From Blasia pusilla (Eukaryota), in NCBI GenBank assembly GCA_050084515.1, contig CM114271.1, positions 13,764,001 to 13,828,000 of the forward strand: DNA of 64,000 nucleotides. The letters run 5' to 3'. Made by a program: the position numbers and the translations under genes. Of the stretch, positions 1,659-56,666 are shown piece after piece. Within the stretch, counting starts at the first letter, position 1. Each line of letters begins with the position of its first letter. Under the pieces are notes generated by a model. It saw only the letters and a program-made list of their open reading frames with translations, made no database searches and was not told where the DNA came from.

Positions 1659-2413
1659 TGTCGTGTCGAGAGTCTTTCTTCGAGTAAGGGCATGCCTCCT
1701 AGCTGCGGCAGACGCGGTCGATGCAAGATGAACTCTCTGAGAAGATCTCCTTTTTCAATATAAAATTATTATGTATACTCTCCATTCTCTCACGATAGGT
1801 ATCACAAATGGAAGTGCCGAGTCGATCACTTCTTCGTAACATCGGATCCCAAAATTCCTAACTATAAAATCCCTATAAGCTATTTTACGCTTGTATACGA
1901 GGAAGATAGCACAAGTAGTATTAAACCCTACTTGATCCGGCTTATTAATGTCCATGGATTGCTATATAAGGACATATAAAGTACAATCCCATGTCCTTCC
2001 ATATGTGACGATAGGAAGGATCACCGGAGTTGGAGATTGAATGACCTAGTTCATGAACGCCTCCCCAAAGTGATAAACTAAATAGCGAGTGAACCAGTGT
2101 CTATCTACAAAGAGTATCTTGACATGGTATGGATTAAGGAAAGGAAAGTTGGGCACAACTCGTGCTCCACCCCTATCCATGCTTGACAGACATTCTCTAT
2201 TCTCCTCAAGAATGGATTTTGGCGGAGTTATTCTCCCAAGAGGGGTAATCCACTCTCATTGGGGAAGTAACAAGCCAAAACATTCACTATTTTTAACATG
2301 ATTAAACTCCTCTAAGGTGAAAAACCTCTCTTCTCCACACACACATACCACACTCTAGAAATCTCTCGAAGAATAGACCATGGTCAAGTTACTCTCCCAA
2401 AAGGGGTGATCCA

Positions 2414-2781
2414 TGTCATGACCATACAGATTATGTCGTAGAGTATAGTGTGCTAGTAGAAGCCATACCTTATGTAGGGCCGTGGTGGCTAGGTAGAGAT
2501 GCGGTTTCATACATAGGTTTGGGGGTTACTCAGTTGGGGGTGACTTTCCGAGTAGGGCCCGCTCTTAGGTTTGAGGATATAATGTGGAGTGCACCCAAAG
2601 AACAGTCAGTTCTTTGAGTTGAGCCTGTTGCGTTGGGAGTTAACCTTGGTAGTGAGTAGAGCTCTTGGCTATGGTGTTTCCTGCAAGCTTCGACCTAGAT
2701 TCTCCCATCGTGGAGTGGGTTTGGCTCGATTGTATGTGATTCTATATGTGTTTTATGATAGTAGGTCTTTCACGGATTTCA
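2414..2781 (+). repeat. 5' terminal repeat A1 (LTR-like, TG...CA)
   Basis: Matches 10068-10431 and 52734-53100 (reverse). TATAA at 2578-2582 and Inr-like TCAGT at 2606-2610. Confidence 0.9.
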
Positions 2782-2792
2782 CTCAAAGAACT
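2781..2792 (+). promoter_or_regulatory. Putative self-priming primer-binding site
   Basis: ACTCAAAGAACT is the exact reverse complement of 2608-2619 inside repeat A. There is no TGG-initiated tRNA PBS here. Confidence 0.7.
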
Positions 2793-2980
2793 TAAGTAGA
2801 TCGATGGTAGCTTCGATTGTGGATCAGTAGGATCTGGTTAAGGTTGATTGTATACTCAGTCGTGGATGTTTGTGGCTTGTGGCCTATGTTGGAGGTGTGA
2901 ATCTTGTGCGTGGTTGGTTGGGAAAGAAGCGCCTTGCTGAGAGCTTTCCAACGTGCTTTAGATCGCCGGATTTTAGGAAT

Positions 2981-3067
2981 GGAGATGAGGTAATGGCGGG
3001 GCTCTTAGGAATGGAGTCAATCAGAGGTTGACTCCATTTCTAAGAGCCCCGCCATTACCTCATCTCC
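2981..3067. repeat. 40-bp-arm inverted repeat (foldback), 7-nt loop
   Basis: 2981-3020 versus 3028-3067, one mismatch. Confidence 0.95.
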
Positions 3068-4629
3068 GTCCACTCAATTGCTTTGCGCAATCTCACCCAC
3101 GACCGTGCCCTAGCTTGACCTAATTCTAAGCAACTCTACAACCCAACGACTATGACCTAGCCCCAAGCCCCTAGCCGCCTTACTTTATAACCCCTCAATG
3201 ACTCCAAGACCTAAAAACTCCTTTCTCTCTACTTCTCCACATGCACCGTTCTCTTGTCGATGCTACACCTAATCTATACCCGAGTAGTGTCCCCAGCTAC
3301 ACCGCCACTGCCCTACGTTAGCCCACTACCAGCAAAACTTGTCTAAAAATGGGCAACGCTTCCGTTAACGACCCTCTGAAGGAAAAACAACAACACATAC
3401 GCTAACAAGTGTCTCCAAGGGCTCCCCACTATGGCAACTTGATTTTCTTCCTGCCCCCTCACATCTTTCTCATGTAAAATCCGAGTAAAAATAGCCACAC
3501 AACCAACTCCACTCTTGAATCTAGATCAGCACATCGAGCCACATTCACCCTCCACTATGAGGGAATCCTGACGCTACCACCCTAGTCCCTGACGTTGACC
3601 CTCTATGTCGTCGACGCTGTAGAACTCTACTTGTCGGCTAACTAAGATGTGACAAGTCAGTAAGAAAAGTGGAAATCCAGATTGATATATGAATTATGAA
3701 TGAATATCAATAGAAGAATTAACTTGCATGTAGAAAAAGGATAGAGCAACAATTTCACTTTCTAAAATATATTGCAGCAAGAAGTGTTATCTAAATGTAT
3801 GTGAAGAGTACAAGTAAAATGCTCATGTTCAACCAATCGATTTACTGGAAAATGCCCTAGAGTATATCTAGAAGCAAAAGCATACATGATTTTTTCTATT
3901 GAAATATAAAATGTGGTACCAAAGACTTGCGTAGCGATAGAAACAAATTGATCCCAAAAGTGTTGAAACAAATAGTAGGAAGACGCAAGTACTATGAAAA
4001 AGGGTGGTTGGTTAACATGGTGAGAAAATAACTTGAAAAGCAACTTAAGTGCTGAGTTCTTAACTATGCCAGTGTACACACTGGTGTAGCTCATTTGGTG
4101 TTGTTCGAAGAGGTGTTAGGCGCTTTATGCATCTGAGGTTTTTGGTTGATGGACCTCTAGCGCATAGTACGGTGTAGCCTCTCCATGCTGGTGATATTTT
4201 CAGGTACTGCGAGTCCGACTAGCACGTCATCGACCCGCGGCGGAGTAGCTATTGCGTTAGAATTGTGTGGTGGGTTTTGTGGATTCAGGGGGCGCCACGT
4301 TTGGTGGATTGTGTTACCTTGATTTCCATTTGCGATTGGAGGATTGTCGTTGGACTTCCTGTGTTTGGATCCCCTCCATCGTTGCTTCTTGCTTGCGCGC
4401 CCATTGTTAGGGTTGACGCTGATTTCCAGAGTAGTGTTATTCCTGTATGCTACCGGTAGTGAGGCTGGAGTGATGACCAGTAGACCGTGGGAGGCTTCTT
4501 GTGGTGATGACATGTTAGGTTTCCTACACCCATAGCTAGTAGAGCTAGAATAGTACAGCGACATCGACATCGACGTCACTTCGTTACTTAGTGGTGGTAA
4601 TTTGGTGGTGGTGCGGCATCGGCGTTGGT

Positions 4630-4690
4630 CATCACGGAGTTGTCGGGTGGTCATCACAGAGTTGTCGGGTCGTCATCACGGAGTTGTCGG
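4630..4690 (+). repeat. Three ~22-bp tandem repeats at a rearrangement junction
   Basis: (T)CATCAC(G/A)GAGTTGTCGG x3, immediately before homology to copy 2 resumes. Confidence 0.8.
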
Positions 4691-4890
4691 ATGGCAACTT
4701 CAGTGTTGGGATCCCCATTGTTTTCAGCCACGGAGCTGATGGCTTTAGGAGTTAACTTAGCTCCTGTATTTCAGCTAGCAGCCACGTTGTGTGAATGTGG
4801 GGGTGTTACTGCTACACGTGTTGAGGTGGATGAGGGTGTTGCGGTGGAGCGACCCTCTATGTCAGGTGTAGCATTAAGTACCAGTGCTAC

Positions 4891-5391
4891 TTGGCAAAGC
4901 AAAGCGTGGCGAAGATGGATGCATTACCAGCCCGGCCAGCCATTGATCGCGAAAGGCTTACACCTGGTGTATGTATGTTGGACAACCGGAGTGGGATATT
5001 CCGATTGGTAAGTCCTACAGGACACGTGTATAGACCAGATAGAGTCTTTTTAGACTCTGATGCCCAACCTTTGATGTTGGGAAAGGCGGCATGTATTGGT
5101 TTGGGTATTTGGAGGTCAGAGATTGAGCCTTGCCCATTCCAGATTCAAACATCACTTGGAGGAGCCAATGATAGGTCTCAATTCATGACACGTGAGAAGT
5201 TTTTTGTACAGTTGAGACGAGATCATGCGACTGATAGCTCCCGGTTGGGAGTATCTGCAATGGTCACATCAGCCGAGTCGTATGATGTACTAGTTGGAGG
5301 AGCAGTATTGTATCCGATGGGTTTCAGATGGATTACTGGACTGAGACATCGTCTTATAGACCTGGTTGGCAGTCCGGGGATGGACGTATGA
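4891..5391 (+). pseudogene. Retroviral-type aspartic protease region of pol
   Basis: RVFLDSDAQ (LDSGA in copy 2) and YDVLVGGAVL. Confidence 0.8.
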
Positions 5392-5619
5392 GCCAAGTTC
5401 CTGTGAGATTTATTTATGGGGCTCGATCAGGAGGGTCTTTCCCAACAGTGTTAGCATCTGTGGCTGGTTTTAGTGGAATAGTCACTTGGCCAGGAGACTT
5501 TTTGGAGGGTAATGTTTCTGCTATGGATTCTCCTGAGGAGGTAGAGGAGGTCCTTATTTTTGCAGCAGTGGCATCCTCATCGTTGGATGTGCCACTTTGG
5601 AGTTCAGGCGATGCACTCA

Positions 5620-6450
5620 GGCGATATCCTGAGTTGTTTCCGCCATCAGCTATTCGTGGGTACCAACGTGCTTTGCTGTCACACATTGCATTGTTGGGGG
5701 CGCAGGACCTTCAGAGGGTTGGTCCTGTGGATTTGGTGATTGCAGGATGGCCATGTCAAGATCATACACGTGCTGGTCGTGGTGAGGGATTACACAACCC
5801 TAGGTCTCGATTGTTTTGGGAGATGTTACGGGTGTTACGACATCTTCAGATTCATCAGGCACGTGCTCCAGCTTACATTCTGGAGAATGTTCCATTGTTG
5901 GATGACACTCGGACCCGGATGATGGCGAGTGTTCATGAGGTGCGGTCTTGGATTGGACCAGCAGTGTTGTTGGATGCAGCGCGAGTTGGCTCGCGTGCAC
6001 ATCGTCCACGCTTGTGGTGGACAAACTTGTTACCTAGGGAGGTTCTACGTCGAGCATATGATGCAGTGCAGCGGGATCCTTGCCTTACAGTGGATAGTAT
6101 CTTGGATACTGGGTGACTTTCTCAGGTGGTGAGGGTTATTGATCAGTCACCCATGGCATTGGTGAACCGTGTGGGCCAACCTAGGATAGCACTACCCGTA
6201 TTTGTGAGTTTTGCCTCGTCACATGCCTACAGGGAAGGTGGTCCCGGGCTTGTATGGGATTCTCATGTGCGACAATTGGTGGAGCCTAACGCTGATGAGA
6301 GAGAGCGTGCGATGGGATTTGCTACTAGTGTGACAGCGGTTGCTTTCATTTCTGAGGCTTCACAACGTCATGTGTTGGGTCAGGCCATGGACCTGAATTG
6401 TTTAACTTGGATTTTGAGTCTTGGTATGGCCGAGCAGCGTCGACTTCGGA
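5620..6450 (+). pseudogene. DNMT3-like C5 cytosine methyltransferase domain in pol (motif I deleted, one internal stop)
   Basis: DLVIAGWPCQ (motif IV), YILENVP (VI), AHRPRLWWTNLLP (VIII), ERERAMGF (IX), RHVLGQAM (X). Confidence 0.9.
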
Positions 6451-6699
6451 CTATCTTTGTGGGTATTCCACCCCTTTTAATGAGCTCGATGGCTACCGGG
6501 ACGGTAGAGGCATCGGCTGGGGGCGAGGAGAGTAGTATTTTGCATCCTTGGAGTAAATGGGATGTTATGGTTGGGCATGTGGAGTTGGTTGCTCATGTTG
6601 GTGGAGGAGTTATTTGCTCAGATGATGGTGTAGCTAAGGGTGTACCATCTCGTGAGGGGGTTGCGTAGCAACCAATGGCATAGTCCTCTCCCTCTAGTG

Positions 6700-8243
6700 T
6701 GCCAGTGGAGGAGACTTGGGAGCCATTATTTGGGCCCAAGCTTACGAGAGGTCAGAAATGACGCTTGACACAGTTCCTACATGCTTATAGGAGTTGTTTT
6801 GCCTTTACCATGAAGGAGTTGGGTGCTCTGGTTGGACCTGGTATACGGATTGATTTGGCTAGTGATACGCCAATCTTCCGTCGTCCCTACCGATAAAGTG
6901 ATATGGAGAGGGACCTGATTCAAAGTAGGACATTGGACCTTTTGGAGGCTGGATTAGTGGAGTTGTCGCATGGAGAGTATGCATCAGCCATTGTCATGCC
7001 TGCTAAAAAGGATATGCATGACAACTACACGGATAGGCGGATGTGTGGAGATTACCATCCTATCAATTGACAAACCAAGGCCGATAGGTATGCCATGCCT
7101 ACACCTGAGGAGATCTTTGATGTGGTGGGACAGGCAAAGATTTTCACTACTTTGGATCTTCGGGTAGGATACCATCAATTGCCGATTCGGGAGAGTGACA
7201 AGGCCAAGACAACATTTTGGGGTGTCAACTCTCATGGCAAGGATTGTTTGTACCAGTGGAAATTCTTACCCTTTGGGTTGAAGAATGCACCTGCCGAGTT
7301 TTAGAGTGATGGGCGGGATCCTAGCAGGTTGGATTTTGTTCGGTGTTACATTGATGATATCTTGGTGTTCAGTAACACGGTGGAGGAGCATCAGATACAT
7401 TTGCAGATGGTGTTTGAGCGGTTGAAAGCTCATGGTCTACGTTTGCATCCAGGAAAGTGTAAGTTCTTCCATGAGGATATTGAGTACTTGGGTCACGTGA
7501 TCTATCCAGGTGGTTTGGGAGTTCTGCAAGCAAAGGTGGAGGCTATTGCACTTATTCCGCGTCTGGTAGATGTGAGTAGAGTTCGGGCATTCATGGGATT
7601 GGCGAACTACTATCGGAGGTATGTGAAGGGATTTAGTGCTATGGCAAAGCCTTTGAACTAATTGCTCAAATCAGATCAAGAGTGGCACTGGGGAGATGAT
7701 CAGGAGAGAGCTTTTGTGGACCTTAAGGCCCAGTTGGTGGCGGCGCCTATCTTGAGGAGACCTATCAGAGGGCGCCCATTTCAGTTACACACTGATTGGA
7801 GTAGGTTGGGACTTGGAGTGGTGTTGACACAACATGATGATGAGCACATGGAGTTTGTGGTGGCCTATGCAAGTCGTTCGAATAATGGAGCGGAGTAGCG
7901 CTATAGTTCATATGAGGGAGAGTGCTTGGCACTAGTGTGGGCTGTGGCACACTTTAGGTGTTACTTGTTTGGCACACATTTTACCCTTGTTTCTGATCAC
8001 CAGCCGCTCAAGTGGTTGATGGAGTCTGACAAGCTTACAGGGAAGCTTGCACGGTGGGCTCTTATCTTACAGGAGTATGACTTCCAGGTGGTACATAGAC
8101 CTGGAGTTGCCAATATTGATGGTGATGGGCTGAGTAGGAACCCATGTACTAGCCAAGAGGATGCAATTGGGGCTAGATGGCATGGCGAGGTTGCTGAGGA
8201 GATGGTGCCAGGTTGGCATGCATCCGTCTTTTATGTTGGTTAG
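6700..8243 (+). pseudogene. Reverse transcriptase and RNase H (fragmented)
   Basis: LDLRVGYHQ, PFGLKNAP, CYIDDILVFS, FQLHTDWS, SDHQPLKWL. Confidence 0.92.
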
Positions 8244-9787
8244 GGGTGGACTCTAGTATGGAGGACCACATGACATCTTACTCTAGTCAGAGGGTAGATG
8301 GCAAGCCTTCAGATTCTAAGGTTGGAGATGGTGGTACAGATCAGCATGATATTCATGATGATGCGTTGGTGTTGGAGTTCCTACGGACCAGTAGGGTGCC
8401 AAGCATAGTGAGTGCCAAGGAGCGAGACCGTGTTCTTCAACGTGCTAAGAGGTATCGATTGGAGGGAACACATATTCTCCGTGTGTGGGAGGATGGTAGA
8501 GTACGAGTAGTGCCGCATTTGGCTTAGAGAGAGCGCATTGTGCGACATGCCCATGAAGAGTTGGGGCATTTTGGGGTAAAGCGTACGTATAGCTTACTCC
8601 TTGGTCAATATTGGTGGCGTGGCATGCATACTCAGGTGCAACAGTTGGTGTCACGTTGTATGGTTTGTGACCGGGTGAGGGCATCATTCAATGCCCCTAC
8701 ACCACAATTACACCCCTTGCCTATTATGGGGTTGGGTTACCGTTGGAGTGTGGACTTTGCGGAACCGTTACCATTGACTGTACGACATCATCGATATGTG
8801 TTGGTGATGGTGGAGCACTTCTCCAAGTGGATTGAGTTGGTGGTTACCTGACAAGGCAAGTGAGGGAACGGCGTACGCGTTTCTTGATAGAGTGCTTAGT
8901 CATTTTGGTGCACCAACTGAAGTGTTGAACGACCAGGGTACAGAGTTTCAAGGTGAGTTTCAGGTCTTGTGTGACAAGGCGTTGATTGATCATCGGACCA
9001 CGTCTCGAGATTGTCTAGAGGCGGATGGTTTGGCTGAGCGTGTGGTTCAGATGGTGAAGAGAGCATTGCGCAAGTATGACCTACAGAAGGGGCATCTTGG
9101 AGACTAGGATATTTAGTTGCCATGGTGAGCCATGGGGTATAGGTTCAGTTGCCAAGCATCCTTGGCTTCCTTCTCACCTTATTTTCTGTTATACTGCCGA
9201 GATCCAGACTTGCTAGCATCAATTCGTCGGGAGTCTAGTAAGGTGGTGAACCTTGATGACCCAGAGATGTGGATGAGGGTGTGTTCTCAGCGGGCAGAGC
9301 TCTTTCAGAGAGTTATGCCGACAGCCTTTGAGAATCTTGCCATTGCTCAACATAGAGATACGTTGCCGTATGCAACAATTTGGGTGGAGGTTATCGACCA
9401 TCGATTCGTAGGTTCCATGTGGGGGACTATGACTATTTGCAGCAGATTGCACCGACAACCTTGGATGTGACGGTAGGCCGCACTATTTTACGAGTGCGCG
9501 AGATGTTAGCTTCTAGAGTTCTCATGTTGGAGGGTCGTGATGGAGTTGTTTGGAAGGACCATGTGCGTAATTTTGCGCCATGTCATCTTCCAAATGTGGA
9601 TGGTACCGTTGACCCAAGCTTAGCCATGATACTTGCTAGCTTGAGGTACATGTTGTGTGGGTTTGCTGGTAACGCAGCCCGTATGTTGGTGTGTGATCGG
9701 TGTTCTAGGGGTTGGCACATGATGTGTTTGACTCCACGTATGGATGTTGTTCCTACTGGAAGGTGGGTTTGTCCTCGATGTATTTAG
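8213..9787 (+). pseudogene. Integrase (HHCC, DDE core) with C-terminal PHD finger (fragmented)
   Basis: HEELGH...CMVC; SVDFA; NDQGTEF; GLAERVVQ; C-terminal (Y)MLC...CDRC...H..C...WVCPRC. Confidence 0.9.
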
Positions 9788-9959
9788 GAGAGGTAGATGA
9801 CTTGATCTTTGCATGATATGGATTACAGATGTGGGACTAATGATGGGGCAACCTAGCACCCGGCCTTCTGATTCGTGCACCCACGAAGGTGTATAGCATG
9901 TAGTAGATGTATAGGGCTACTTGGGAGTTAGAGGGACCTAACCGCCAGCTAGGGGGGTG

Positions 9960-10537
9960 AGTTGTGGTACACTTGTGTTTGTGGATGCTCTCGTCTATGT
10001 TATGTATGTATGTGAGTATGGTTTTCATCGATGTATGTTGTATGACGATGTGGATTTGTACGACAGTTGTCATGACCATACGGATTATGTCGTAGATTAT
10101 AGTGTGCTAGTAGAGGCCATTCCTTATGTAGGACCGTAGTGGCTAGATAGAGATGCGGTTTCATTCATAGGGTTGGGGGTTACTCAGTTGGGGGTGACTT
10201 TCCCAATAGGCCCGCTCTTAGTTTGGAGGATATAGTGAGGAGACCCAAAGAACAGTCAGTTCATTGAGTTGAGCCTCTTGCGTTGGGAGTTAGCCTTTGT
10301 AGTGAGTAGAGCTCTTGGCTATGGTGTTTCCCGCAAGCTTCGACCTAGATTCTCCCATCGTGGAGTGGGTTTGGCTCGATTGTATGTGATTGTATACGTG
10401 TTTTATGACAATAGGTCTTTCACGGATTTTAGTTGTGGTACACTTATGTTTGTGGATGCTCTCGTCTATGTTATATATGTATGTGAGTATGGTATGTCAG
10501 CGATGTATGTTTTATGACGATGTGGGTCCGCACGACA
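9960..10537 (+). repeat. 3' split repeats B1 (9960-10065), A2 (10068-10431), B2 (10431-10537)
   Basis: B1 and B2 are direct ~106-bp copies. A2 matches A1. Confidence 0.9.
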
Positions 10538-11059
10538 TCCACTCTCATTGGAAGAGCAAGCAATCCCAAAGTCATACACTCAAGAGTGACACGAAAGACT
10601 CAAGATGTGGAATAGAAGGTGATGAACCCTTGAAGGTCCCTCCTCTTTATATACTCATAAGAGACCCACAAGAGTACGAAATAGAGCTAATCTTATCTTG
10701 TGCCACATGGCTTCCTCTCAAGGCTTAGCCAATCACATTTTGACACAAGTAGATTTCCTCTTATCTCCTCCAAAATATCCTCTTTTATCCACTTGATATT
10801 TTCCAAATTACCCCAACTAACCTAGCCACCAACCAAGCCTACTTTTGCTTTTCATTAAAGCACCAACCTCACTACTTTACTTTTATAAAGTCAACTTTTA
10901 TTTATTACCTCTTTTCTAAAGTTAGGCCCGCATAAAAGAGGTACCATAAAGAGGTTTAAATATGAGAATTTCCTTTTCCTAAGCTAATTTACTTAATACT
11001 AATAAAACTCTATCTAACACTTAACGAGGAAGGAGTTTACACACTGGCTGATTTTACTA

Positions 11060-11532: not shown

Positions 11533-14247
11533 AAAACTACCCTAGTGGATATTTGAAACGTCTACCATCTAAGATTAAAGGAAAAAATTACGTGATTATT
11601 AAAATGTTGAGGGCTTAGATTGGAAAGGATTTAGAGGCCACTCCAACCTTTCTAAAAATCTTTCCTAAAGTGTTTGTGTAGCTTTATAGGATCTTTTTAG
11701 GGATAATAATCTAAATGTAGTAATAAGGGTCTTGAATGCTTTATGTATGTCTATAAGGCAATTAGGGTTGTAAGGATGAAAATGCCCTTTGTGCACATTT
11801 TGGAAGGGAATTTTTTTCAAGTGGTCATTTGAAATCTATTGTTGTGGATTTGATTGGGAGTTTTGAAATAATATTTTTAGTCATTTAAGCTCATTGCCTC
11901 AGATCGTTAGAAACCACTCCATAATATCTTAGAAAAAACGATTTATTACCTCACATGCGTGATGATGAGTCATAAGTCCTTCATTTCATATAATGCGGCA
12001 CAAAATAAATTCCCTATAACATAAATCATTGGTAAACTACAAATCACACAGAGAGAGGAATGGGTAAGCCATTAAGATCTGAGAGAGAGAGAGTTCTGAC
12101 TAGCGTATGCTTATTCCTTATGCGGATCGATTATGGCCACGATCGAATAAAATTTTTTTGGAATTTGTGGACTATGGTAAGTTGGAGCCCATGCTTACAA
12201 GGTAAGTTCTCTAAATTGATTGCTTTAGCTAACAGTGTTAGGGTACAATGCGTCAGTACTCCTATTTCTTAGAGAGCTTTCTCTATGTAGAATATAATAA
12301 AGATTTAATGTCATAATAGATTAATGACAAAACATTTGGATGTTGTTCTTGGGATTTCCTTAGAGGGAAAAGTAGTTGATGGCAAGAATATATTGGTTGA
12401 ATTATTAGTTCTTTAAAAAAAATCACACTTTAGATCCATGTTTGCCAATCTTGAGAGATGTGTTTGTGATTAAGATACTCCAAAAGATGTACAAAATTCT
12501 CCAAGAGCATTAGTTCTAGATTTATAAGGTAGGTAGGGAGGATGGGGTGAAGGGTTCCTTTTCTAATATATTGAAGCTCTTTTTTAAAAGGCTTTAATGT
12601 GTTGTGAAGGGGAAGGATCCTTTGCTCCCAATTGAAGGGAGGCTTGACGAGGTTCAATTCCTACCAAAGATGCAAATGTGGGAGTTAGCAAATGGGTGAG
12701 GGGGAGAGATGTAAATGTTGGTGTTCCTTTGCTTTCAAGTGGTGGAAAGCCTGACAACGTTCAAAGGATGTGTTGAAGAAAAACTAAGAGTAAGAGGAAA
12801 TGTGGAAAAGGGAGTGAAGTGGCACGAAGACTACGAAGAGTCACATAGTTCAACTCTTCACTCCCTCTCAACTCTCTTTGTGAAAACTTGCAATGGTAGT
12901 CCAAAGGAAGCCGGATTTTTTTTTTAGTTGGTTAGATTTCTAGGCCACCAAAAAATTTCCGAGCAACCATTCAATTTATGAGAAATGCACCGTTAAAAAA
13001 ATTTTAATTCAAAAAGTAATTGGAAAATAAAATTTTTCCCAAAATTTTCCCAAGGTGTCTCTTTCAACTGGTAAATTTTTTTATAACCAACAAGATAACC
13101 AATACATATGCCAACAATTTTCTGATAGTTTTACATGAAAAAACTACCTAGAATATAACAACCTCCTCTGAGTGCAAATCCCCATGGAAATGTTCCACGG
13201 GTCCAAGCCCAATCAAGCAACCTTGTTTGAGGCTATTTGACCCGCGATTTCCTTTTTAGCCTACAATTTTCTTTTTTGATCTTGCTCCAAACCTCTACCA
13301 CCCAAGTATTATCCTTGGGTGTTCAACGGCACGATTTTTATAAAAATGACGAAGGACCAAAAACCTATCCTCGATCTCAAACCAATGTGCGGGCCTTTGA
13401 GAGGGGTGGGGGGGGGGGAGAAACTAATTACTACACACGCATGATGGACACATGGATAGCCTAGCTAATGAGGTAAAAAAATGAGTATATATAAGGGCCA
13501 TAATAATCTTAACCGTTCATCTTCCAAAATCAAGTAATTGTAACGGCCACAACTTAAGGCCCGTACTTTGCGGTTCCCTCCCAAGTGCGTGCAAAACATA
13601 ATATTTTATGCAATTGCACCACAATGCTCTAGGGGATTCATATTGTGACATGGAGAAATATTATTGCATCAATAACTTCTATGGTTTAGGCTTTCAACAT
13701 GTTAGTTGTCACTATGTATTCACGGTCTTTATGTTTCATTGTCATTTTGTGTTGTGCGGATTCTCATTGATTCGTTCTTGTCTAACCGATGGCGGGAGTT
13801 AGGTTCTTTGTTAAAAAAACTCCCCTTCAGCCTGTCGTTGCAATCTGGATTGGGTTGGCTATTATGGCATTTGTATGTGGTATATTGTATGAACCCTTAG
13901 TGTTTTTTGAGATTGTAGTTCAATGATTGTTCAGTTTGAACGGCCCTCAAAGGATGTTTTCACACTATTGTATTCATCTCCTTCGTAGTAATGTATTGGA
14001 TCGTCCAACCGAAATGTAATTCAAATATTTTCATATTATTGTATTCATCTTTTTTGTAGCGTATTGAATATTAATTGAAATCTACGTAAACTTTCTATTT
14101 TTAATTTTAATGTAATCATAAGTCCTCATCTGTATTATATGCTGGTTTTTTAATAAGACCCCTCTTTTGGGACCGCCACACTACATCTTAGGAATATGCT
14201 AATGTAGGAACCTATGCTGGTTTTTTTAATAAGACCCCTCTTTTGGG

Positions 14248-16369: not shown

Positions 16370-19300
16370 TGTATTGCACATACACATCGTTACATTACAT
16401 ACATCATTGTCATTGATTACATACAAGATACTATGTTAATTTATGGGATCCAAAAATCGCAATGATAGAAGACCAAAATATATGTAATGTTTATTACAAA
16501 AGAGAATGAACTCCAAAACTCTTCTTGGATACACCCCCTTCCATCTCCCAAACTCTCTCCATACTAACCTATGCTTGCAGGTCGCCTCCTTGGCTCTTAA
16601 CCTATAGTAGGGAGTCAGAATCCACTTCCCAAAGTGGAGAGTCAACTCTACGCATAATGGTAGTTTGCTTGAAATAGTAAGTTTCTCTATATTGCCAAAA
16701 CAAAAGGGAAACATGCTCTCTTAAGTTACCCGAGGTTTCAACAGGTCATCCTCCACCTCATGAGGTTGTCCTCCAATATCCTCGAAGACGGTCTACTATA
16801 AATTTTTCGATCCATGATAAAAGACATCACACTTGTCGTGCGCATACATATCGCTACACTACATATATCAATATCACTGAATACACATACAAACACACAT
16901 GATACCATACTGATTTATGACATCCAAATATCTAGACAATCGAGGACCAAAATATTTCCAATCGCGTCGTGCGCCTACTCCTCTTGAACGTCAATCTCAA
17001 ATGTTGCGGAAGCGTCCGTTCAGTAGGACACGCTCACACTATTGATTTGCGCCCAAACACACTCACATTAGTAATGTTTGATTCAATCAGCCTTCCAACC
17101 CCTGAGTTCTCAACTCGGTCATTCATCAAGCTCAACCCTGCTAGTTTCTTACTTCCGGAAATAAGAACTCTCGTGCCGCTCCTTTTGGCCCTCAATCCAA
17201 CTCCTTGTACAATAGTTTTCGGAAACTTTCTCAACCTCTACTTATGTGTTTGCGAAGATCTTTGGTGCGTTTGAACTGGATTTTCATAAGATATCCAACG
17301 TCATCTTACATGTCCTAAACGCTAATCCCGTTCCAAGTCCAGTTCTCAACTATACTCGCCTCTACTTAAGTCTCAGTTCACATTTGGTTTAGGTTTCCTT
17401 AGTTGTGACCAGAAAATGAATGAAACGCTCAACCTTCTTTGCATCTCATCTCTTGTGTCTCCTTCAAGAGACCTCTCCAATGTACAACCATCCTAGTGTG
17501 AGCCCACTATATTCTGATGTTCCGATTTGGTACATGTTTAGCTATGTGGGTCGTGACAAATCGCCCCTCTACTTGGTGGCTAGGTCCCTCTAACTCCAAA
17601 TAGCCATCTATCCCTACCTACCATAATACACATCTCTAGGATGCTAAGAGAAAAAAGGTTGGATGCTCATATGGCCCCATCGTTAGTCACCTTCTTGTCA
17701 TCCATGTCACACACACAAGTCTGGATCTATGACTACCTACTATCTACTCTATGTATAATATTTGGAGCACATCTATCGTCCCTAAGGAACCCTAGTAAGA
17801 GGTGGTGGCACCCTCTCGAATATCTTTCACATACTAGCATCGTGACTACACCACGAATAGAACCATACAACATGCAATGTAAGCCTACAACAACCACAAC
17901 TAAGCTTGGATCAATTATATCGTCGATGTTAGGAAGGTGACATGGTGCATAGTTACATACAAGGTCCTTCCAAACCATATCATCGTGTCCCTCCAATAAG
18001 ACAACATCGGATAGCAAGACATCACGCACTCTCAAGATGGTGCGCCCAACAGTCACATCCAACATCGTCTTTCGCAAGTAGACATAATCTTCTTGATGAA
18101 ACCTCTAGATCATTGGTCGATAATCATCTCCTTGAATAGTCATATACCTCAAAGTATCTCGATGATGCGTAATCATCAAGTTCTCAAATGCCATGGGCAT
18201 AACTCTTCGAAACAACTCAGCCCTTTGAGAACATATATGCTTGCATCCATATATCACGGTCGTCGAGGTTCAACACCTCACCAACGTCGCGATGAATGGC
18301 CACATGTAAATCAAGATCTTGACCATAAAGCAATAAGTACGGTGGAAAAGACGCTAAGGATTGATGCTTTCTGTTGAGTCTATATCCCATTGCCAACCGC
18401 GGAAATTGTAGGTGCCAATCTCTTAGGTGACCTCTTTGCAAGCCATACTTATGCAAACCTCTCTTCACTGTGTGCAAAAATCTTTCTGTTAGTCCATCCG
18501 CCTAAAGATAATCTTGTGAAGTGGTGCGGTGGTCAATCAACATCTGATCACACAAGGCTTGAAACTCCGTACCCTCGTCTGTCAACACCTTAGCTTGTGC
18601 GTCATAATGACTCAAAACTCGATCTAGGAAGGCTTATGCTACTCCCTTACTTGCTTTGTCATGAGATGCAACCAACTCTATCCACTTCAAGAAGTGTTCG
18701 ACCATTATCAACATATAACAACTATGACCTCTGTCAAAGATAAAGGTCTTGCAAAATCCAAACTCCATCTATAACCTAAACCCAAGATCGATAGTGGATG
18801 CAACTATGGAGTCGGAACATTGAAGAATGTCTCGACCGGATCACACACCATGCACTTGACAAAAAAATTTTGCACATCAATGTGCATGCCTCGCCATTGA
18901 CATTATATCTGGATTAAGTTGTACATCCAATTCACTCCAAAGTGATCCAACTCCTCGTTGGCATGTGGTATCAAACGTGGTCTCTACAAAGGATGAGGCA
19001 TTACGCGTACTATATCATCCTCCCAAACTTGCAACATATGCGTCCCTCCATAAAAACCGTATGGATCGTTGTAGGGTCCGATCTCACTTTCTAGCACCCA
19101 CTGTGCTCACGATGCTTCCAATACGCAGGTACTCCAAGACCACTCTATCCTCGTGAATATCTCAACCACTTGTTGCTTCCTCACCAACCTCTAGATCTAA
19201 GGGTCCTTGCCATCAAAGTCTCAACACTCTGGCTCTCCATAGCTAACAAGCCCAAATAGGCTCATGCGTACCATCCCAGCACCATCTCGATCCTCATCAC

Positions 19301-31100: not shown

Positions 31101-34100
31101 AAATGTTGATTCATTCTCTGTAGACCCACTTGGACATGGCCACACAGAGGAACACTAGTACTCCTACTCTGAGAGGCTAGTTCTCAATGTACGCAGTGGA
31201 GGTTATGAATGCCACAGAAATAACCATTGCTAAAAGAGTTTCTAGCAGTTCAAGTCTGCTTGCCAAGCCACATCTATTTTACTTTGTTTCACCATCAATC
31301 TGACCATATAGCCAAAGTTTGAATCACATGTAGACTCCTGCTTAAAGCAAAATTGTCCATCTCAACTTTGTGCATGAGAGCCAATTTAAAAAAATGACAC
31401 TTGCTTTGCTGAGGAGGAGCACATACAACGGATACCAACCTGTGGTTGACGGCATCCTCCAAGAACTTTTGCATCTCATCGAGCTCTCTAGTGTTGGTAG
31501 CTGTCGCAAATGCAAATTCTCCTTTAACCTCCACGAATGACTTATACAGCTCCTGCATATTACAGCAACAAACCACCATCATTTAAGGAAAAGCATACTC
31601 AGGCTTTCACCTTTCCTTTCCCAAGGAAGTGATTGCCATAACATCTATTTTGGACCATCTCTCCCCTTTTGATGGTGGTGTTCAGTTCACATGGTCCATC
31701 TGGATGAAAAAAAGAAAGGGGAGAGAGAATATTTTGCTAGCAAACCTTCATCACCCTGTTTCAACTGAGATGATACACATCCAGTCTCATAAGCTTAGAT
31801 GTACTCATGTGATGAATACGAGACTATGTGAGAGTATACCACTGTCAAGCCTTACACTTGATCTAGAGGAAATAGACACAAGTGAGCTCGAGCAATCTCA
31901 CTCTGGCACTAACAAAATTCAAAGACTATGTATGGCACAATATGATCACGATAAAGTTGTTTACCTCCCGACGGACTATCAGTTGTTCATCTACTAGCTT
32001 CCGGCCATTGACATATAACAGATCAAAAGCAAAGATGCAGACTTTCACTTTGATGTCACTGACAATTACTCCTTTCCTCGCTCTCGTGCTCAAAATCTGG
32101 CAAACAGTTCATACCTCTTATAAATATAACACTCCAACATGTGTGACCAACAATCAGTTGCTTTTCTATTGAATAAGCGATCTCCACCTGAGCTAGAAGC
32201 TTGCTGTGAAATTTCCACTGAACCAGGTAATTGAGCAGCTCCTAAAATGTCCGAGCAGAGAAACTTCCTTACATGCACATGGCAGTATTCCAAAATTCTC
32301 AAACGGTCTCATTATGGACTGTTGAGGCCATATCAGATTTCCCTTCTCACCTGAAATGGGAGAATCTTATCCTTTTCTTGGTCATATGCCACCACTTCAC
32401 AATCTAGTACAAATGATGTTACTTCAGACGTTTTGAACCTGTGATTTGACGACCAAAATTCAGTATTTTGAAATCCTTTCATTCCTATGCAAGCCACCCA
32501 TAAGAAGAGTCCCATTGCTAATAGAACCAAGAGTTGAACTACATTCCTACGCAGAAAAAAATGTCTTGTATAGAGCAAAAGGAGGTAGTTTTGTACTTGC
32601 CTCGACATAGCAGCCACAATATCTGGAAATTTTCCTGTGTTTCGTTCGGCATTTCTACTGTAAATTTCCACAGAACCATCCTCCATGTAGTGTATCTGTA
32701 AGACAGTCCAGTGCTATTCTACTTCAGAAATGAACCGATTAAGAATGGGCAAGCAAAACCAAAGTCTAGTTCACAAATAAAGACACAATTCAATGACGAT
32801 TGGGCAAGAGAAATCTGATTCACACCAAAGGTGAAAGTGACATGCAAAGATCCAATATTTCCATGTGAGGACAGTGAAATATCCACTTCTTCCAAAGCAC
32901 ATACAGGAAAAATTAACTAGTAACTATTTGGTTTCTCCATCTGACACAATATGCACATGAATATACAGGTGAAAATTGGAGAGGAGGTTCACAGAGATTG
33001 GCCCTATACCTGTGCACGTTCACCGTCGTACTTGTACTCACAGGTGAACTCAAGTCCTTGAAATTTATCCAACACCTCTGACACACCTTTGGTTGGCTTA
33101 GCTAACATTGGTCCCACCGGCACACCAAGTGTGAATGTACAGATATCAGAAAGCTTTTGGATTCCCTCCTCCAGTAGGGTTGGCACTATTTTTTCATACA
33201 ATGGTAGTACAGAATACGTGTGCTTCATAGTTCGAACAGCCTGAATCCCGCCATGCATGTTTAAGCAGGAACAATCAGAAATAGTCATGTCATAGGGCTT
33301 GATCTGATGGAATCTACTTTACTTGGCAAAAGTAGGAAACACCACTTTTACATCACTTAAAAATATTCTGCAATGTAATCATAAGTGCCAGCTTTTCAGT
33401 TTTTCTTTGGAACCATGTTGGCAGAGAAAGATAATGCCAAATTGCTTGGAAGATGATAAGGTTCACTCATTTGAAAGGTTCATTGCCCGTGTGGTACTTA
33501 CATCCTCTAAACGAGATTGCAATTTGGAAGCTTGAACAGGTGGCTGCTCTGAGAGCACTGCTGCATTGGCAAGAGCAACAAGAACAGTTGACTCTGCCAG
33601 CCCTATCCTCATTTTACCCTGCCACCATATCACTGATTTAGCATGTGTAAAAGTGATGATGATTGTGCGATCATTGGCACTACTACACTTATCTTGCTGA
33701 TAATGTGGACATCATAGTCAATCCACGTACTTGACACGATGGCCTACAATTGTCTCTAAAGGCGAAGATGTCTAAACTAAGCGCAGTCATTAAGAGAACA
33801 CCAAGACTAAATGCAAATATGAAACATTGTTCCACAAAGTACGGTAAACCATGTATCTGGGCTCAAATGGACAAGTCTGACCTTCCTAGACCCCTCGGAA
33901 CAGGAAGTTACCTGAAGAAGACGGACAACATACTGTGGTTCACAATCAGTAGCAGCAACCAACAAACCCTTCATTCTAGCCCGTTTCTTGTCCTGACTTT
34001 GGTTACCTGATTCCTGCGACAATCAATTTTGGAAGTCCAGCATAATTAATTCGCCAGTTGAAAACATAGCATGGCGAGGTGCACCAGCAAGTCCTCTTGC

Positions 34101-48742: not shown

Positions 48743-51700
48743 TGTAATGTGTCACGTTATTTAGGATACGTCAGTAAGATCTAGCGGAGCGCCTTTGGAG
48801 ATACTAGAGGACAACCTCAAAAGGTTGAGGATGACCTTCTAAGGCCACGAGTAACCTGAGAGAGCAGGTTTCCCCTTCATTTCGGCTAATTTGGAGCCAT
48901 ACATAGAAACTTACTATTTTGGATAAGTTTCTATTTAGAGCATAGTTGACTTTCTACTTTGGAAAGTGGCCCTTAACCCAGGTCAACAGGTCAAGAGCCA
49001 AGGAGATAACTTGCGGGCATAGGTTATCGAGGAGAGAGTTTGGGAGAGGGAAGGGGATATACCTCCAAGAGAGAGAGCTTGAGAGCTCATTCTCTCTTTG
49101 TTGAACCTCGTGGCATGAGGCGGCGGACCTTTGGTCTTCCTTGCCTTATATGTGTAATCCAAGCCTCTCATTAGGAGAGTGGGTTTGGTTTGACATGAGA
49201 GAGAGTGCACACCATGAAGAGCGTGGTGTGAGATATTGATGTGAGATTTCATTGATTTACAAAGAGAGAATTGAGTGGGTGAGAGAGTTTCAATGGGAGA
49301 GCTCACTGGTCACTCGCAATTGTTGCAGGTTGGGGACCGTGTTTCCCTTTCAACGGCTCATGAGAGTGCTCACCGGAGCAAGAGCTGCTTGATTTTGCTG
49401 TTTCTTTACCGATTTTTCATGAAGAAGAGTGGCGCGCGGAAGCGCTGCCCAAATTTTTGTAGAGATTGAGTATAGGGGCGGATTGCCCCATTTCGGTGCT
49501 CTTGGGAGCACCATACATCTCTTTTATTTTATAGGTTTGAAACTTCCGTTGGGAGAAATCAACGCGAAAGCGTTGCCAAATTTATTGTAGGATAGTAGAT
49601 TGAAGGGCTTTACAACAGTCCCTGTCAGTTTTTATTGGAAAATTGGATTGAAAAACAAATTTGACATTGTCGTAGATCATGAAGCTATGCACTTTGTGCA
49701 ATAGACGGTACACAATTTGGAGCTACGAGCAAAAAGTTATGACCAAGTTTGCAAATTATCAATTTTAGAATAAAAATTATCAAACCCTAAACCAGCCGCC
49801 ACCGTTTAGGGTTTGACGGCCGCTTGACGATAATCGAGTATCATACCGTGACACCGGAAGCCGCACTGCACTGTCTCGATCGCGGAGCCACTCCATCAGT
49901 GGGGAGCAGATTGTGTTTTGTTGACTGAGGAGGGTATGCCGCCGAGTGCCGCACCCCATTCGTGAGTGACGTATCATTTGTAGCCGTCGTAGGACTTGAA
50001 GCAGGTAGGGAACATAGATTTGGTCATTGCAGGTTGGCCATGTTAAGGCCACTCAAGTGTTGGATGAGGTAACGGGTTACCTGACTCTCGGTCCAGGTTG
50101 TTGTGGGAGATGATGCAAATCTCGCGACACTTGCAGGAGCATCACTTTTGTTCTCCAACATACATTCTGGAGAATGTGCCAATTTTGGGCGATTCGAGGT
50201 CTTGCATGGTGACGAGTGCACATCAGGTGCGCGTATGGATCGGCCCAACAGTGTTGTTGGATGCAATAAGTGTAGGTTCATGAGCACATTTTCTACGTCT
50301 TTGGTGGACCAACTTGGTGCTACATGAGGTTTTTTGGAAGGCGTATGCGAGAGTGGAGCGCCCATCCCATTTTTTGGTGGATTTTATTCACGATCTAGGT
50401 CGTCAATCACAGGTAGTGAGGCATGCTGATTGATCTTTGTTGACTGTGGTCAATAGGATTGGAATGCCACGAGCAGCCTTTTCCACATTTGTGAGTTTTC
50501 TCACTTCCTATGCATTCAAGGAGGTCGAACGTGGCTTGGTTTGGGATGACCAGATATAGCGGTTGGTAGAGCCCAATGCCGATGAGCAAGAGCGAGCAAT
50601 GGGATTCCCCATAGGAGTGACGGCAGTACCGTCACTATTAGAGGCATCACGACGTCATGTCTTTGGTCAAGCGATGGACCTGAATTTCTTGACATGGATT
50701 TTCAGCTTAGCAATAGCCGAGAGATGATAGCCACAACATCGAGCATGGTTTTGGGTACTTCACGTGGAGGAGATCGGATTTTGCAGTTGGGTGTAGGGGA
50801 TCAGTCCCGCTCTGTTGTTCGAGACAGGGTTGCACCATAACAACCACCAACACCGGCGCCGGAGAGTCCTACCGTAGTCACGATGGAGACTTGGGAGCCA
50901 GATATGGGCCCTAAGTTGATAGGAGGAGAGCGGCGCCGGATACATCAGTTACTTAGGAGTTATAGGAGCCATTTTGCATTTAGTATGCATGATTTGGATA
51001 CGGGTCCACGGATCCGCATTGAGTTGTCGAGCGACACGCCGATCTTCCGACAACTCTACAAGTACAGTCACATGGAGAGGGATCTAATTTAGAGTAAGAG
51101 CCATGATTTGGTTGGAGCAGGACGAGTGGAGATGTCGCATGGAGAGTATGCATCTACCACTGCCATGTCCGCCAAGAAGGATATGCATGGAAATTGGACA
51201 GATAGGCGGATGTGTGGAGATTGCCGACCTATCAATCAGTAGACGAAGTCCGATAGGTATGCCATACCCACCCCTAAGGAGATCTTTGATGCTATTGGGC
51301 ATGCAAAGGTCTTTAGTCCGCTAGATCTTCGAGTTGGATACCATCAGTTGCCTATCAAATTGGAAGTGAGGCAGAAGACGATATTTTGGGGCATCGATCC
51401 TTACGGGAAGGATTATTTGTATCACTCGCGGTTCTTACCATTTGGGTTAAAGAATGCCCCGGCTGAGTTTCAAAGGGTCATGGATAGAATCTTGGTAGGT
51501 CTATATTTTGCTAGGTGTTAGATTGATGACATCGTAGTCTTTAGCGCCACGGTTGAGGAGCATGAGCGACATCTAGAGGAGGTATTTTGACGATTGCGGT
51601 TACATGGGCTGAAGTTACATCTAGAAAAGTGCAAGTTCTTCTACGACCAGATTGAGTACCTAGGTCATACCATATATCCAAGTGGCCTTGGTGTGTAGTA

Positions 51701-52627: not shown

Positions 52628-53378
52628 TGTCGTGCGAATCCACATTGTCATACAACATACATCGCTGACATACCATACTCACATACATACATAACATAGA
52701 CGAGAGCATCCACAAACACAAGTGTACCACGACTGAAATCCATGGAAGACCTTATGTCATAAACACATATAGAATCACATACAATCGAGCCAAATCCACT
52801 CCACGATGAGAGAATCAAGGTCTAAGCTTGCGGGAACTACCATAGCCAAGAGCTCTACTCACTACCAAGGCTAACTCCCAACGCAACATGCTCAACTCAA
52901 AGAACTAACAGTTCTTTGAGTGCACTCCACACTATATCCTCCAACCTAAGAGCGGGCCCTACTGGAAAAGTCACCCTCAACTGAGTAACCCCCAACCCTA
53001 TGTATGAAACCGCATCTCTACCTAGACACTACGACCCTACATAAGGTATGGCCTCTACTAGCACACTATACTCTACGACATAATCCATATGGTCATGACA
53101 ACTGTCGTGCGAATCCACATCATACAACATACATCGCTGACATACCATACTCACATACATACATAACATAGACGAGAGCATCCACAAACACAAGTGTACC
53201 ACAACTCGCCCCCCTAATTGGTGGTTAGGTCCCTCTAACTCCCATGTAGCCCTATAGATCTACTACATGCTATACACTTTCGTAGGTCCACGAATCAGAA
53301 GGCTGTGTGCTAGGTTGCCCAATCGCTAGTCGCACATCTGTAATCCATATCATGCAAAGATCAAGTCATCTACCTCTT

Positions 53379-54989
53379 CTACGTACATCGAGGACAAACC
53401 CACCTTCTAGTAGGAACAAAATCCATACGTGGAGTCAAACACATCATGTGCCAACCCCTAGAACATCGATCACACACCAACATACGGGCTACGTTACCAG
53501 CACACCCACACAACATACACCTCAAGCTAGCACGTATCATGGCTAAGCTTGGGTCAACAGTACCATCCACATTTGGAAGATGACATGACGCACAATTACG
53601 CACATGGTCCTTCCAAACAACTCCATCACGACCCTCCAACATGAGAACTCCAGAAGCTAACACCTCGCGCACTCGTAAAATAGTGAGGCCTGTTGTCACA
53701 TCCAACGTTGTCAGTGCAATCTGCTGCAAATAGACATAGTCCCCCACATGGAACCTACAAATCGATGGTCGATAACCTCCAACCCGAATGGTTGCATATC
53801 CCAACGTATCCCCGTGTTCAGCAATGGCAAGATTCTCAAAGGTTGTTGGCATAACTCTTCGAAAGAGCTCTGCCCATTGAGAACACACTCTCATCAACAT
53901 CTCTGGGTCGTCAAGGTTCACCACCTCACTAGACTCCTAACGAATTGCTGCTGGCAAGTCTGGATCTTGGCCGTATAACAGAAAATAAGGTGAGAAGGAA
54001 GCCAAGGATGCTTGGCAACTGAACCTATACCCCATGGCTAACCATGGCAACTCAATATCCTAGTCTCCAAGATGCCCCTTCTATAGGCCATACTTGCGCA
54101 ATGCCCTCTTCACCATCTGAACCACACGTTGAGCCAAACCATCCGCCTCTGGATGATCTCGAGACGTGGTCCGATGATCAATCAACGTCTTGTCACACAA
54201 GACCTGAAACTCACCCTGAAACTCTGTACCCTGGTCGGTCAGCACTTCACCTTGTGCACCAAAATGACTAAGCACTCTAGCAAGAAATGCATACGCCGTT
54301 CCCTCACTTGCCTTTCCAGGTAATGCCACCAACTCAATCCACTTGGAGAAGTTCTCCCCCATCACCAACACATATCGATAATGTCGTACAGTCAACGGTA
54401 ACGGTCCCGCAAAGTCCACACTCCAATGGTAACCCAACTCCATAATAGGCAAGGGGTGTAACTGTGGTGTAGGGGCATTGAATGATGCCCTCACCCGGTC
54501 ACAAACCATACAACGTGACACCAACTGCTACAACCTGAGTAAGCATGCCACGCCACCAATATTGACCAAGGAGTAAGCTGTACATACGTTTTACCCAAAA
54601 ATGTCCCAACTCCTCATGGGCATGTCGCACAATGCGCTCTCTCTGAGCCAAATGCGACACCTCTGAGCCAAATGCGACACTACTCATACTCTACTATCCT
54701 CCCACACACGGAGAATATGTGTTCCCTCCAATCGATACCTCTTAGCACATTGAAGAACACGATCTCGCTCCTTGGCACTCACTATGTCTGGCACCCTACT
54801 GGTCCGTAGGAACTCCAACACCAACGCATCATCATGAATATCACGCAAATCCGTACCACCATCTCCAACCTTCGAATCTGAAGGCTGGCCATCTACCCTC
54901 TGACTAGAGTAAGATGTCATGTGGTCCTCCATACTAGAGTCCACCCCTAACCAACATAAAAAGGCAAATGCATGCCAACCTGACACCAT
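53379..54989 (-). pseudogene. Integrase with C-terminal PHD finger
   Basis: SVDFAGPLP, TDQGTEF; CMLC-x9-CDRC-x4-H-x2-C-x14-CPRC. Confidence 0.9.
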
Positions 54990-54992
54990 CTC

Positions 54993-56500: not shown

Positions 56501-56666
56501 AGGAAGAGGACGACGCCATTGGCTTCTTCGCAACCCCCTTACAAGATGGTATCACAAGGGGTGGAAGACCCAGAGACATAGTCTAAAGTCGACGCCGCTT
56601 GGCCATACCAAGACTCAAAATCCAGGTCAAACAATTCAGGTCCATGGCCTGACCCAACACATGACG

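Follow-up and report, generated by a model that had tools for sequence, protein, structure and literature searches.

The window analysed in this study is a stretch of 64,000 nucleotides from Blasia pusilla (GenBank assembly GCA_050084515.1, contig CM114271.1, positions 13,764,001 to 13,828,000 of the forward strand), and all coordinates given below refer to it. At positions 2414–10537 it contains, in plus orientation, a degraded Ty3/gypsy retrotransposon, referred to as copy 1, with regions for gag, protease, a DNMT3-like cytosine methyltransferase, reverse transcriptase (RT), RNase H, a DDE integrase and a PHD finger. It was confirmed that one insertion accounts for the whole element, that its ends are TG…CA and that it is flanked by a 4-bp target site duplication (TSD; TCCA), and that its direct repeats are split and follow the layout A1…PPT-B1-GT-A2-B2, in which PPT is the polypurine tract. 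A second copy of the same family (copy 2) is located on the minus strand at 52628–60349.

The ends of the insertion were examined with reads and contigs aligned to positions 2000–11000 (DNA-contig runs X1 and X2; RNA runs X22 and X23). Related copies of the flanking repeat connect position 2408 to position 10537, whereby 8128 bases are skipped and five ambiguous letters are shared. This empty-site joint occurred in all four runs (8 contigs in X1, 4 contigs in X2, 35 reads in X22 and 34 reads in X23). Furthermore, an uninterrupted paralogue of the target lies within the window at 2242–2267 and possesses a single TCCA (2249–2252). Because of the empty-site joint and the uninterrupted paralogue, positions 2414–10537 are regarded as one insertion with a 4-bp duplication (left TSD at 2410–2413, right TSD at 10538–10541). 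An earlier sequence-only reading of this stretch had fixed the ends by the same TCCA, and this was borne out. For copy 1, a 5-bp duplication would require that the last letter of the element, an A, be included.

Copy 1 was inserted within another repeat, which belongs to the family of a 623-bp repeat present at 1658–2280, just upstream of copy 1, and at 56668–57290. Both occurrences are 94% alike, and the family is found at high copy number in the DNA runs. RNA reads on the flanks of copy 1 are opposite to the sense reads of the element (first mate on the plus strand).

At the 5' end of copy 1, the repeat A1 (2414–2780) is present alone. At the 3' end, the PPT AGGGGGG (9951–9957) is followed after 2 nt by B1 (9960–10065, ending …TACGACA), a 2-nt spacer GT (10066–10067) that separates the abutting end sites CA and TG, A2 (10068–10430) and finally B2 (10431–10537, ending …CACGACA). 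A1 and A2 are 92% identical over 366 bp (E about 1e-150), and B1 and B2 are 91% identical over 107 bp, so that the 3' order noticed before is backed by both pairs of repeats. The outermost letters are TGTCA…CGACA, with TGTCATGACC at the start, where A1 begins, and CGCACGACA at the end. That the 5' end consists of A alone was correct insofar as no B occurs there, but A1 ends at 2780 and the adjoining bases 2781–2792 are a primer binding site (PBS).

The coding part of copy 1 begins late. A leader together with a further region (2793–4672) is found in place of the N-terminal half of gag, which is missing from copy 1, and it shows no homology to the gag N-terminal region of copy 2. It is high-copy at about 2793–2950 and 4107–4672 and low-copy at about 2950–4100; copy 1 is thus not a clean reference for the family. 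Within this region, 3204–3504 is nearly unique (DNA depth of about 15 in comparison to tens of thousands elsewhere), and a palindrome lies at 2981–3067. The high-copy segment 4107–4672 is transcribed in sense orientation and gave no Pfam match; a long open frame of the minus strand is located at 4160–4672.

The C-terminal part of gag and the protease follow in a frameshifted region (4673–5624), which was aligned by tblastn to residues 514–830 of the relative protein P0002 (43–74% identity). The DNMT3-like C5 cytosine methyltransferase domain (5616–6632; Pfam DNA_methylase) showed 69% identity to P0002 in tblastn. Downstream of it, RT and RNase H (6717–8243, frameshifted; Pfam RVT_1, RT_RNaseH and RT_RNaseH_2; tblastn to P0004), the H2C2 zinc domain (8528–8683; Pfam Integrase_H2C2) and the rve core (8808–9104; Pfam rve) of the DDE integrase and, at the C-terminus of the integrase, a PHD finger (9653–9784; Pfam PHD, E 3.9e-10) were detected. 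The PHD finger also occurs in copy 2, and the Pfam order C5 DNA methylase, RVT_1, RNase H, Integrase_H2C2, rve and PHD finger is the same in both copies, both of which are broken by frameshifts. Copy 2 additionally gave a weak gag match in Pfam. The methylase and the PHD finger had been overlooked in the sequence-only reading.

In the RNA runs a joint of positions 8309 and 9316 was observed (16 reads in X22 and 29 in X23), by which 1006 bases of the integrase region are skipped and between which nine other letters are found; it was absent from the DNA-contig runs. Either a related copy with a deletion is expressed here or the joint stems from processing of the RNA; both are conceivable.

A comparison of the homologue of the copy 2 methylase with solved structures yielded 29 PDB matches, all of which are DNMT3A, DNMT3B or DNMT3C. 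In the intact relative P0023, the DNMT domain is likewise situated between protease and RT. Among named proteins, the best matches are annotated as 'hypothetical proteins' and belong to Marchantia polymorpha (68% identity), Calypogeia fissa and Sphagnum. More distant full-length polyproteins originate from Closterium, Monoraphidium and metagenomes, and between them the named and the distant relatives carry CCHC, protease, DNMT, RT, RNase H, integrase and PHD. A match to a tyrosine recombinase of the Phage_integrase type was obtained for none of the 96 stop-to-stop frames of at least 60 aa of both copies and for none of seven relatives, in agreement with the earlier reading of the element as one that encodes an integrase.

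The order RT, RNase H and DDE integrase in Pol of copies 1 and 2 and the short TSD and the TG…CA ends of copy 1 are those of Ty3/gypsy elements. What differs is the arrangement of the repeats. In an element of this group an identical long terminal repeat (LTR) is expected at each end, with PBS and PPT inside of them, whereas here the 5' end consists of A only and the 3' end of B-NN-A-B (NN, 2-nt spacer). PBS and PPT bound B-NN-A and not the inserted ends.

Two signals are important for this assignment. First, a G-run PPT was located 0–2 nt before B1 in all seven elements for which PPT and B1 were available. Second, a perfect 12-nt complement exists between position 195 of A (2608–2619, AGTTCTTTGAGT) and the bases directly after A (2781–2792, ACTCAAAGAACT). 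The arm at 2608 lies about 30 nt past a TATA-like box (GATATAAT, 2576–2583) and is predicted to be the 5' end of the transcript and a self-primer arm, so that 2781–2792 would be a PBS for self-priming. Among the 5' ends counted below, a TATA[AT]A box, where found, is located 31–36 nt upstream of the A arm, and in 15 of 23 of these ends the expected pair of A arm and post-A sequence scored highest of all stems. Two unrelated sequence forms of it exist (AGTTCTTTGAGT:ACTCAAAGAACT and, in a second lineage, AGTTTTTCTAGAATT:AATTCTAGAAAAACT), both of which pair in the minimum free energy fold as well as in the centroid fold. Since the two forms are unrelated, the pairing is conserved while the sequence is not.

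This arrangement corresponds to the self-priming mechanism described for Tf1 (PMC7175516), in which the transcript shows complementarity at its 5' end to a PBS behind U5; in the window all 12 of 12 nt are complementary, the start itself being predicted. Self-priming was also predicted for the Tcn1 clade of mosses and lycophytes (PMC6317226). Priming by a tRNA was considered and dropped: ARAGORN detected no tRNA gene in the window, and neither of the two PBS forms starts with TGG.

As the PPT lies directly before B and the pair of self-primer and PBS directly after A, the LTR made by reverse transcription is most probably B-NN-A. In terms of the unique 3' (U3), repeated (R) and unique 5' (U5) parts of an LTR, B would hence be the 5' part of U3, and A would comprise the rest of U3, R and U5. 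Accordingly labelled, A1 would consist of the 3' part of U3 (2414–2607) and of R-U5 (2608–2780). Both RNA runs contain sense-strand reads from related copies that extend over A, the body and B1.

An alignment of methylase-bearing relatives was used for retrieval from metagenomes, by which 136 of 170 candidate stretches were confirmed and 80 loci were kept. A or B was recognisable in 40 of these 80 loci. The following counts of ends refer to the copies in the window together with the 80 loci. Rows with a 5'-truncated A (L033, L034 and L039) and one with B at the end of a contig (L041) were dropped before counting; L006 and L053/L050, whose 3' ends are cut or degraded after B-NN-A, are also listed as dropped. 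The short-spaced repeat of L035 was not counted because it belongs to a different, nested element (PBS TGGTATCAGAGC). L064 and L080, without recognisable terminal repeats, were left unclassified.

After 28 locus rows had been collapsed to 22 insertions and the two ends from the window had been added, 24 distinct 5' ends were available, and each consists of flank, A and leader in this order. They start with TGTCATG in 23 cases and with TCTCATG in one (L048). B before A was found at none of the 24 5' ends, and the same is true for the reciprocal form A-B-NN-A…B. An element with B-NN-A at both ends did not occur in the window or among the 80 loci. The 17 informative distinct 3' ends comprise nine with PPT-B-NN-A-B, two in which B-NN-A is cut or degraded, and six with PPT-B followed by flank only. 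This third form, A…PPT-B, was not part of the sequence-only reading, which was incomplete in this respect too. The nine PPT-B-NN-A-B ends belong to copies 1 and 2 and a diverged family B of the window as well as to L020, L049, L026=L030, L058, L074=L075 and L061=L062.

Both ends were available for eight elements, six of which possess a perfect 4-bp TSD (TCCA, CCTA, AAAG, CACA, TGTT and TTGA), and the other two match at three of four bases. The flanks of L058 (1339–1423 and 12202–12286) are 85% alike, and the host sequence hit by this insertion is a short tandem repeat. The relatives thus keep the layout: symmetric repeats, TSDs at shifted positions or a B2 present only once, any of which would have spoken against the initial description, were not encountered.

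The internal junction CACGACA-NN-TGTCATG is conserved even between lineages in which the remainder of A and B cannot be aligned, and only its spacer varies (GT, GT, AG, GC, GC, GC, AT, TC and TC/TT at nine junctions). This is in line with the earlier suggestion that CGACA-GT-TGTCA represents a pair of end sites. The inserted form A…B-NN-A-B has the content of B-NN-A…B-NN-A, with the left B shifted to the right end. Together with the position of PPT and PBS, this supports the view, also held in the sequence-only reading, that a canonical element with B-NN-A as its putative LTR has been circularly permuted in the integrated copy.

The boundary of A2 and B2 is the end of U5 joined to the first base past the PPT. 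In both copies of the window and in L020 this junction is exact. In L058 and L026 it additionally contains the first three bases of the PBS, in L074 three PBS bases are present but 2 nt are missing, and in L061=L062 about ten PBS bases and four to five others were found. Because the junction differs between insertions, it is most likely remade at each transposition. L061=L062 is also informative in another respect. An inverted segment of gag and A replaces PPT-B1-NN and the 5' part of A2, but this insertion still ends with U5-PBS-B and has a perfect TSD. Since neither PPT-B1-NN nor the 5' part of A2 is present, B2 of this element must have come from the left end of the cDNA; therefore, B2 was neither copied from a neighbouring B1 nor inherited as a fixed junction. 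In L061 the inverted A/gag piece (13469–14009) takes the place of the region of integrase, PHD, PPT and B1, and the rearrangement resembles a snap-back or strand-switch error of reverse transcription.

From the observed anatomy and its conservation, the TSDs, the empty site, the pairing of the primer and the heterogeneity of the junctions, we infer an order of events that includes a strand switch and a particular chemistry of the integrase. Transcription would start about 30 nt past the TATA box inside of A, and the first 12 bases or so of the RNA would fold back onto the sequence behind A and prime the minus strand, as in Tf1. The plus strand would be primed at the G-run PPT directly before B, and ordinary reverse transcription would yield a linear cDNA of the form B-NN-A…B-NN-A. 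The integrase would ignore the outer ends of this cDNA, as its sites …CACGACA and TGTCATG… abut inside of the LTR at a distance of 2 nt. Instead, U5 at the right end, in some cases together with several bases of the PBS, would be joined to the start of B at the left end of the cDNA, and cleavage of the internal junction of the left LTR would result in A…B-NN-A-B, which is inserted with a 4-bp duplication.

The joining may take place during synthesis of the plus strand. The left LTR would be completed early, whereas the plus strand would reach the right end last; the finishing strand might then switch end-to-end onto the completed left end and copy B, and the integrase would subsequently cut at the 3'-most CA of each strand. 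If the switch failed, both internal sites would be cut and A…B would be formed, which lacks a 3' R and is a dead end. This would account for the six 3' ends with B only. A polar joining step is favoured because only the permutation A…B-NN-A-B and never its mirror form was found. Taken together, we consider it slightly more probable than not that copy 1 is an old, broken member of an ancient Gypsy-DNMT3 clade of the green lineage with a permuted LTR, in which joined cDNA ends are cut again inside of the LTR, preferably after a polar step.

Several points weigh against this explanation. A cDNA intermediate was not observed; we infer that the ends are joined, that this step is polar and that internal sites at least 109 nt from a 3' end are cut. 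In 8 of 23 5' ends the expected primer stem was not ranked first. The only pile of RNA starts is located at 2575 (25 molecules, X22 only), whereas the start is predicted 33 nt further downstream at 2608; the pile falls in a variable stretch, and the predicted start was not confirmed by reads. A pile of RNA ends was seen neither in A2 nor in B2 (X22 and X23), and the poly(A) site was not located, with RNA reads evaluated in 300-bp bins and reads from other copies being shared between A1 and A2 and between B1 and B2. The reciprocal form could also be lost faster, as its two A copies (about 370 bp each, 475 bp apart) would recombine to A…B, and the six 3' ends with B only may be products of recombination between B1 and B2 of A…B-A-B and not primary insertions. 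Finally, every copy examined is old and broken (all loci are decayed, and an open reading frame of more than 831 aa was found in none of them), and activity of these copies cannot be claimed.

The strongest competing explanation is that the linear cDNA is ligated by the host to a free 2-LTR circle, and that the integrase opens at random one of the two identical B-NN-A junctions. The A2/B2 junction indeed resembles a circle junction, including the variants that keep PBS bases, and the integrases of HIV-1 and of a spumavirus were reported to cut palindromic LTR-LTR junctions in 2-LTR circles (PMC1905944, PMC1180852). The two junctions of such a circle would, however, be identical over at least 107 bp to one side and 368 bp to the other, so that the reciprocal product should arise about equally often, and it was present at 0 of 24 5' ends compared to nine 3' ends with A…B-A-B. 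A free circle could be reconciled with these counts only if the reciprocal form is quickly lost by recombination of its A copies, and we regard it as unlikely, albeit worth keeping in mind. The sequence-only reading had proposed the opening of a 2-LTR circle at the internal junction; of this, the permutation and the paired end sites are well founded, whereas the missing reciprocal form speaks against a circle opened at random.

It is improbable, and clearly more so than the circle, that the element replicates like DIRS or PAT elements without any joining of ends, with B1-NN-A2 as template for the outer parts of A1 and B2 that are missing from the transcript and with insertion by the DDE integrase. 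The order A1-B1-A2-B2 is that of PAT, Toc, Ngaro and Viper elements (PMC4157794), and de Mendoza et al. called a similar layout in Klebsormidium nitens DIRS-like (PMC5890265). Nevertheless, PPT and PBS flank B-NN-A exactly like a canonical LTR, and a templated A2/B2 junction should be constant within a family but varies. In addition, L061=L062 possesses B2 without any B1-NN-A2 template, and B2 is only weakly covered by RNA, even if its reads were possibly assigned to B1. That the layout is secondary, i.e. that an element inserted with symmetric LTRs and was only later changed through tandem duplication, unequal recombination or nested insertion, or that its ends were set wrongly, is hardly credible: although the 5' third of copy 1 is rearranged and both 5' ends of the window derive from internally deleted copies, the empty site agrees to the base with ends at 2414 and 10537, the same arrangement with TSDs recurs in independent, diverged elements from other sources, and B-NN-A at both ends was never found, with B before A at 0 of 24 5' ends.

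The other copies in the window follow the same repeat layout. Copy 2 has B2 at 52628–52734, A2 at 52735–53100, the spacer GT and B1 at 53103–53206; beyond B1, PHD, integrase, RNase H, RT, DNMT and then gag follow up to 60349. A 5' A of copy 2 was not found in the window, and nothing beyond 59177 matched A or positions 2782–4700 of copy 1 in blastn or tblastx. Between its DNMT and RT regions, 56 bp are replaced by the 623-bp repeat at 56668–57290 mentioned above, which is foreign to copy 2. Family B, which is only 66–72% identical to the family of copy 1, is represented by a 3' end on the minus strand (16370–16964) with B1, AG, A and B2, the two B copies being 73% alike. A family-B-like 5' A lies on the plus strand at 48743–49101, with flank on its left, leader on its right and B on neither side; this copy lacks gag and protease. 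The B-A-B ends of copy 2 and family B, as well as the isolated A at about 48743, had been noticed before and were all recovered.

Beside these elements, an open frame of the minus strand (32333–32713) encodes an ATP-dependent DNA ligase domain (PF01068, E 4e-12), which may be a host exon or a captured fragment. Another open frame of the minus strand (1–792) runs off the window; its DUF4100 match is weak (E 9e-5) and does not reach the Pfam cut-off, and the frame is probably part of another retroelement. In a palindrome at 63147–63634, a family-B-like sequence (corresponding to 17559–17843) meets its own inverted copy at about 63430.

The layout had initially been considered foreign to Gypsy elements with a DDE integrase. 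This does not apply, as de Mendoza et al. (2018; PMC5890265) described KnitGypsy-Dnmt3 of Klebsormidium nitens, a Gypsy-type element whose Pol contains Dnmt3, and the legends of Fig. 4c and Fig. 1e of that paper describe DIRS-type repeats in the order A-coding-B-A-B together with Gypsy-type domains. Both features, the DNMT3-like methylase inside of a Gypsy polyprotein and the A…B-A-B repeats, are also present in copy 1. The permuted layout of a DNMT3-bearing Gypsy element is thus already published for Klebsormidium, and it is real and recurrent here. In contrast to the algal element, that of B. pusilla is closest to proteins of M. polymorpha; among the 25 and 54 matches listed, none is a protein named after Klebsormidium, and copy 1 is likened to the copies of K. 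nitens by layout and domains. The relevant passages of PMC5890265 give neither TSD, PBS, PPT and end sites nor a mechanism, and the passage concerned of a 2026 preprint mentions 'streptophytes (Gypsy-DNMT3)' in passing. Nothing was found in the literature searched on the mechanism, on copies of liverworts or on TOC1, though further details of repeats or priming may be contained in the supplements of PMC5890265 and PMC6317226. Within the reach of these searches, it appears to be unpublished how U3, R and U5 are distributed over A and B, and the same applies to the self-priming, to internal end sites separated by 2 nt along with a 4-bp TSD, to the heterogeneity of the junctions, to the one-sided permutation and to the spread of the layout in bryophyte-type elements.

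Split direct repeats are otherwise typical of PAT, Ngaro and DIRS elements, and they are present in copy 1, which does not possess the tyrosine recombinase gene of those elements. TOC1 has such an unusual repeat arrangement. PAT, Toc, Kangaroo, Ngaro and Viper elements share with copy 1 the order A1…B1-A2-B2, and their internal B1/A2 junction equals the junction of joined ends (PMC4157794); they differ from copy 1, which has a DDE integrase with H2C2 zinc domain, a 4-bp TSD and TG…CA ends. Elements of the Tf1/sushi group and Tcn1 resemble copy 1 in that the first 11–15 bases of the predicted transcript show complementarity to the stretch that immediately follows U5 (PMC7175516, PMC6317226). 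Unlike copy 1 with its PHD finger, they have ordinary identical LTRs and mostly a chromodomain, and are likened to it by priming only.

A further likeness concerns abutted ends. In bacteria, the circle junctions of IS3- and IS30-type insertion sequences (IS) consist of abutted ends which are cut by a DDE enzyme. In retroviral 2-LTR circles, two ends likewise abut with a short spacer, and cleavage by a DDE enzyme leads to a linear form competent for insertion (PMC1905944, PMC1180852). In contrast to retroviral and IS circles, the abutted ends of copy 1 and its relatives would be templated inside of every LTR and not made by joining, and the U5/U3 junction that is made by joining would stay uncut in the inserted copy.

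The explanation favoured for copy 1 may extend to the whole Gypsy-DNMT3-PHD clade of the green lineage, from chlorophytes to bryophytes, with integrase sites inside of the LTR and an obligate joined-end route to integration (by a polar switch or a circle); we rate this extension at a little less than an even chance.

For the annotation of plant genomes, these results imply that standard LTR finders would take A1 and A2 for the two repeats, overlook B2 and find no matching TSD. The clade and its methyltransferase genes are probably mis-bounded or mis-annotated as host genes, and its named relatives are listed as 'hypothetical proteins'. As relatives are transcribed in an organism with public RNA runs, the cDNA junctions can be sequenced directly. 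From the sequence a role was assigned to each half of a split direct repeat, by which the origin of this repeat type in DIRS-like elements becomes a testable question. If the proposed route is true, a whole clade, persistent across green plants, would be an exception to the insertion of LTR retrotransposons by the outer ends of linear cDNA. It would also provide a mechanistic link of canonical LTR elements with DIRS, PAT and Ngaro elements and with IS-type transposition by circle junctions, and would explain the origin of split direct repeats.

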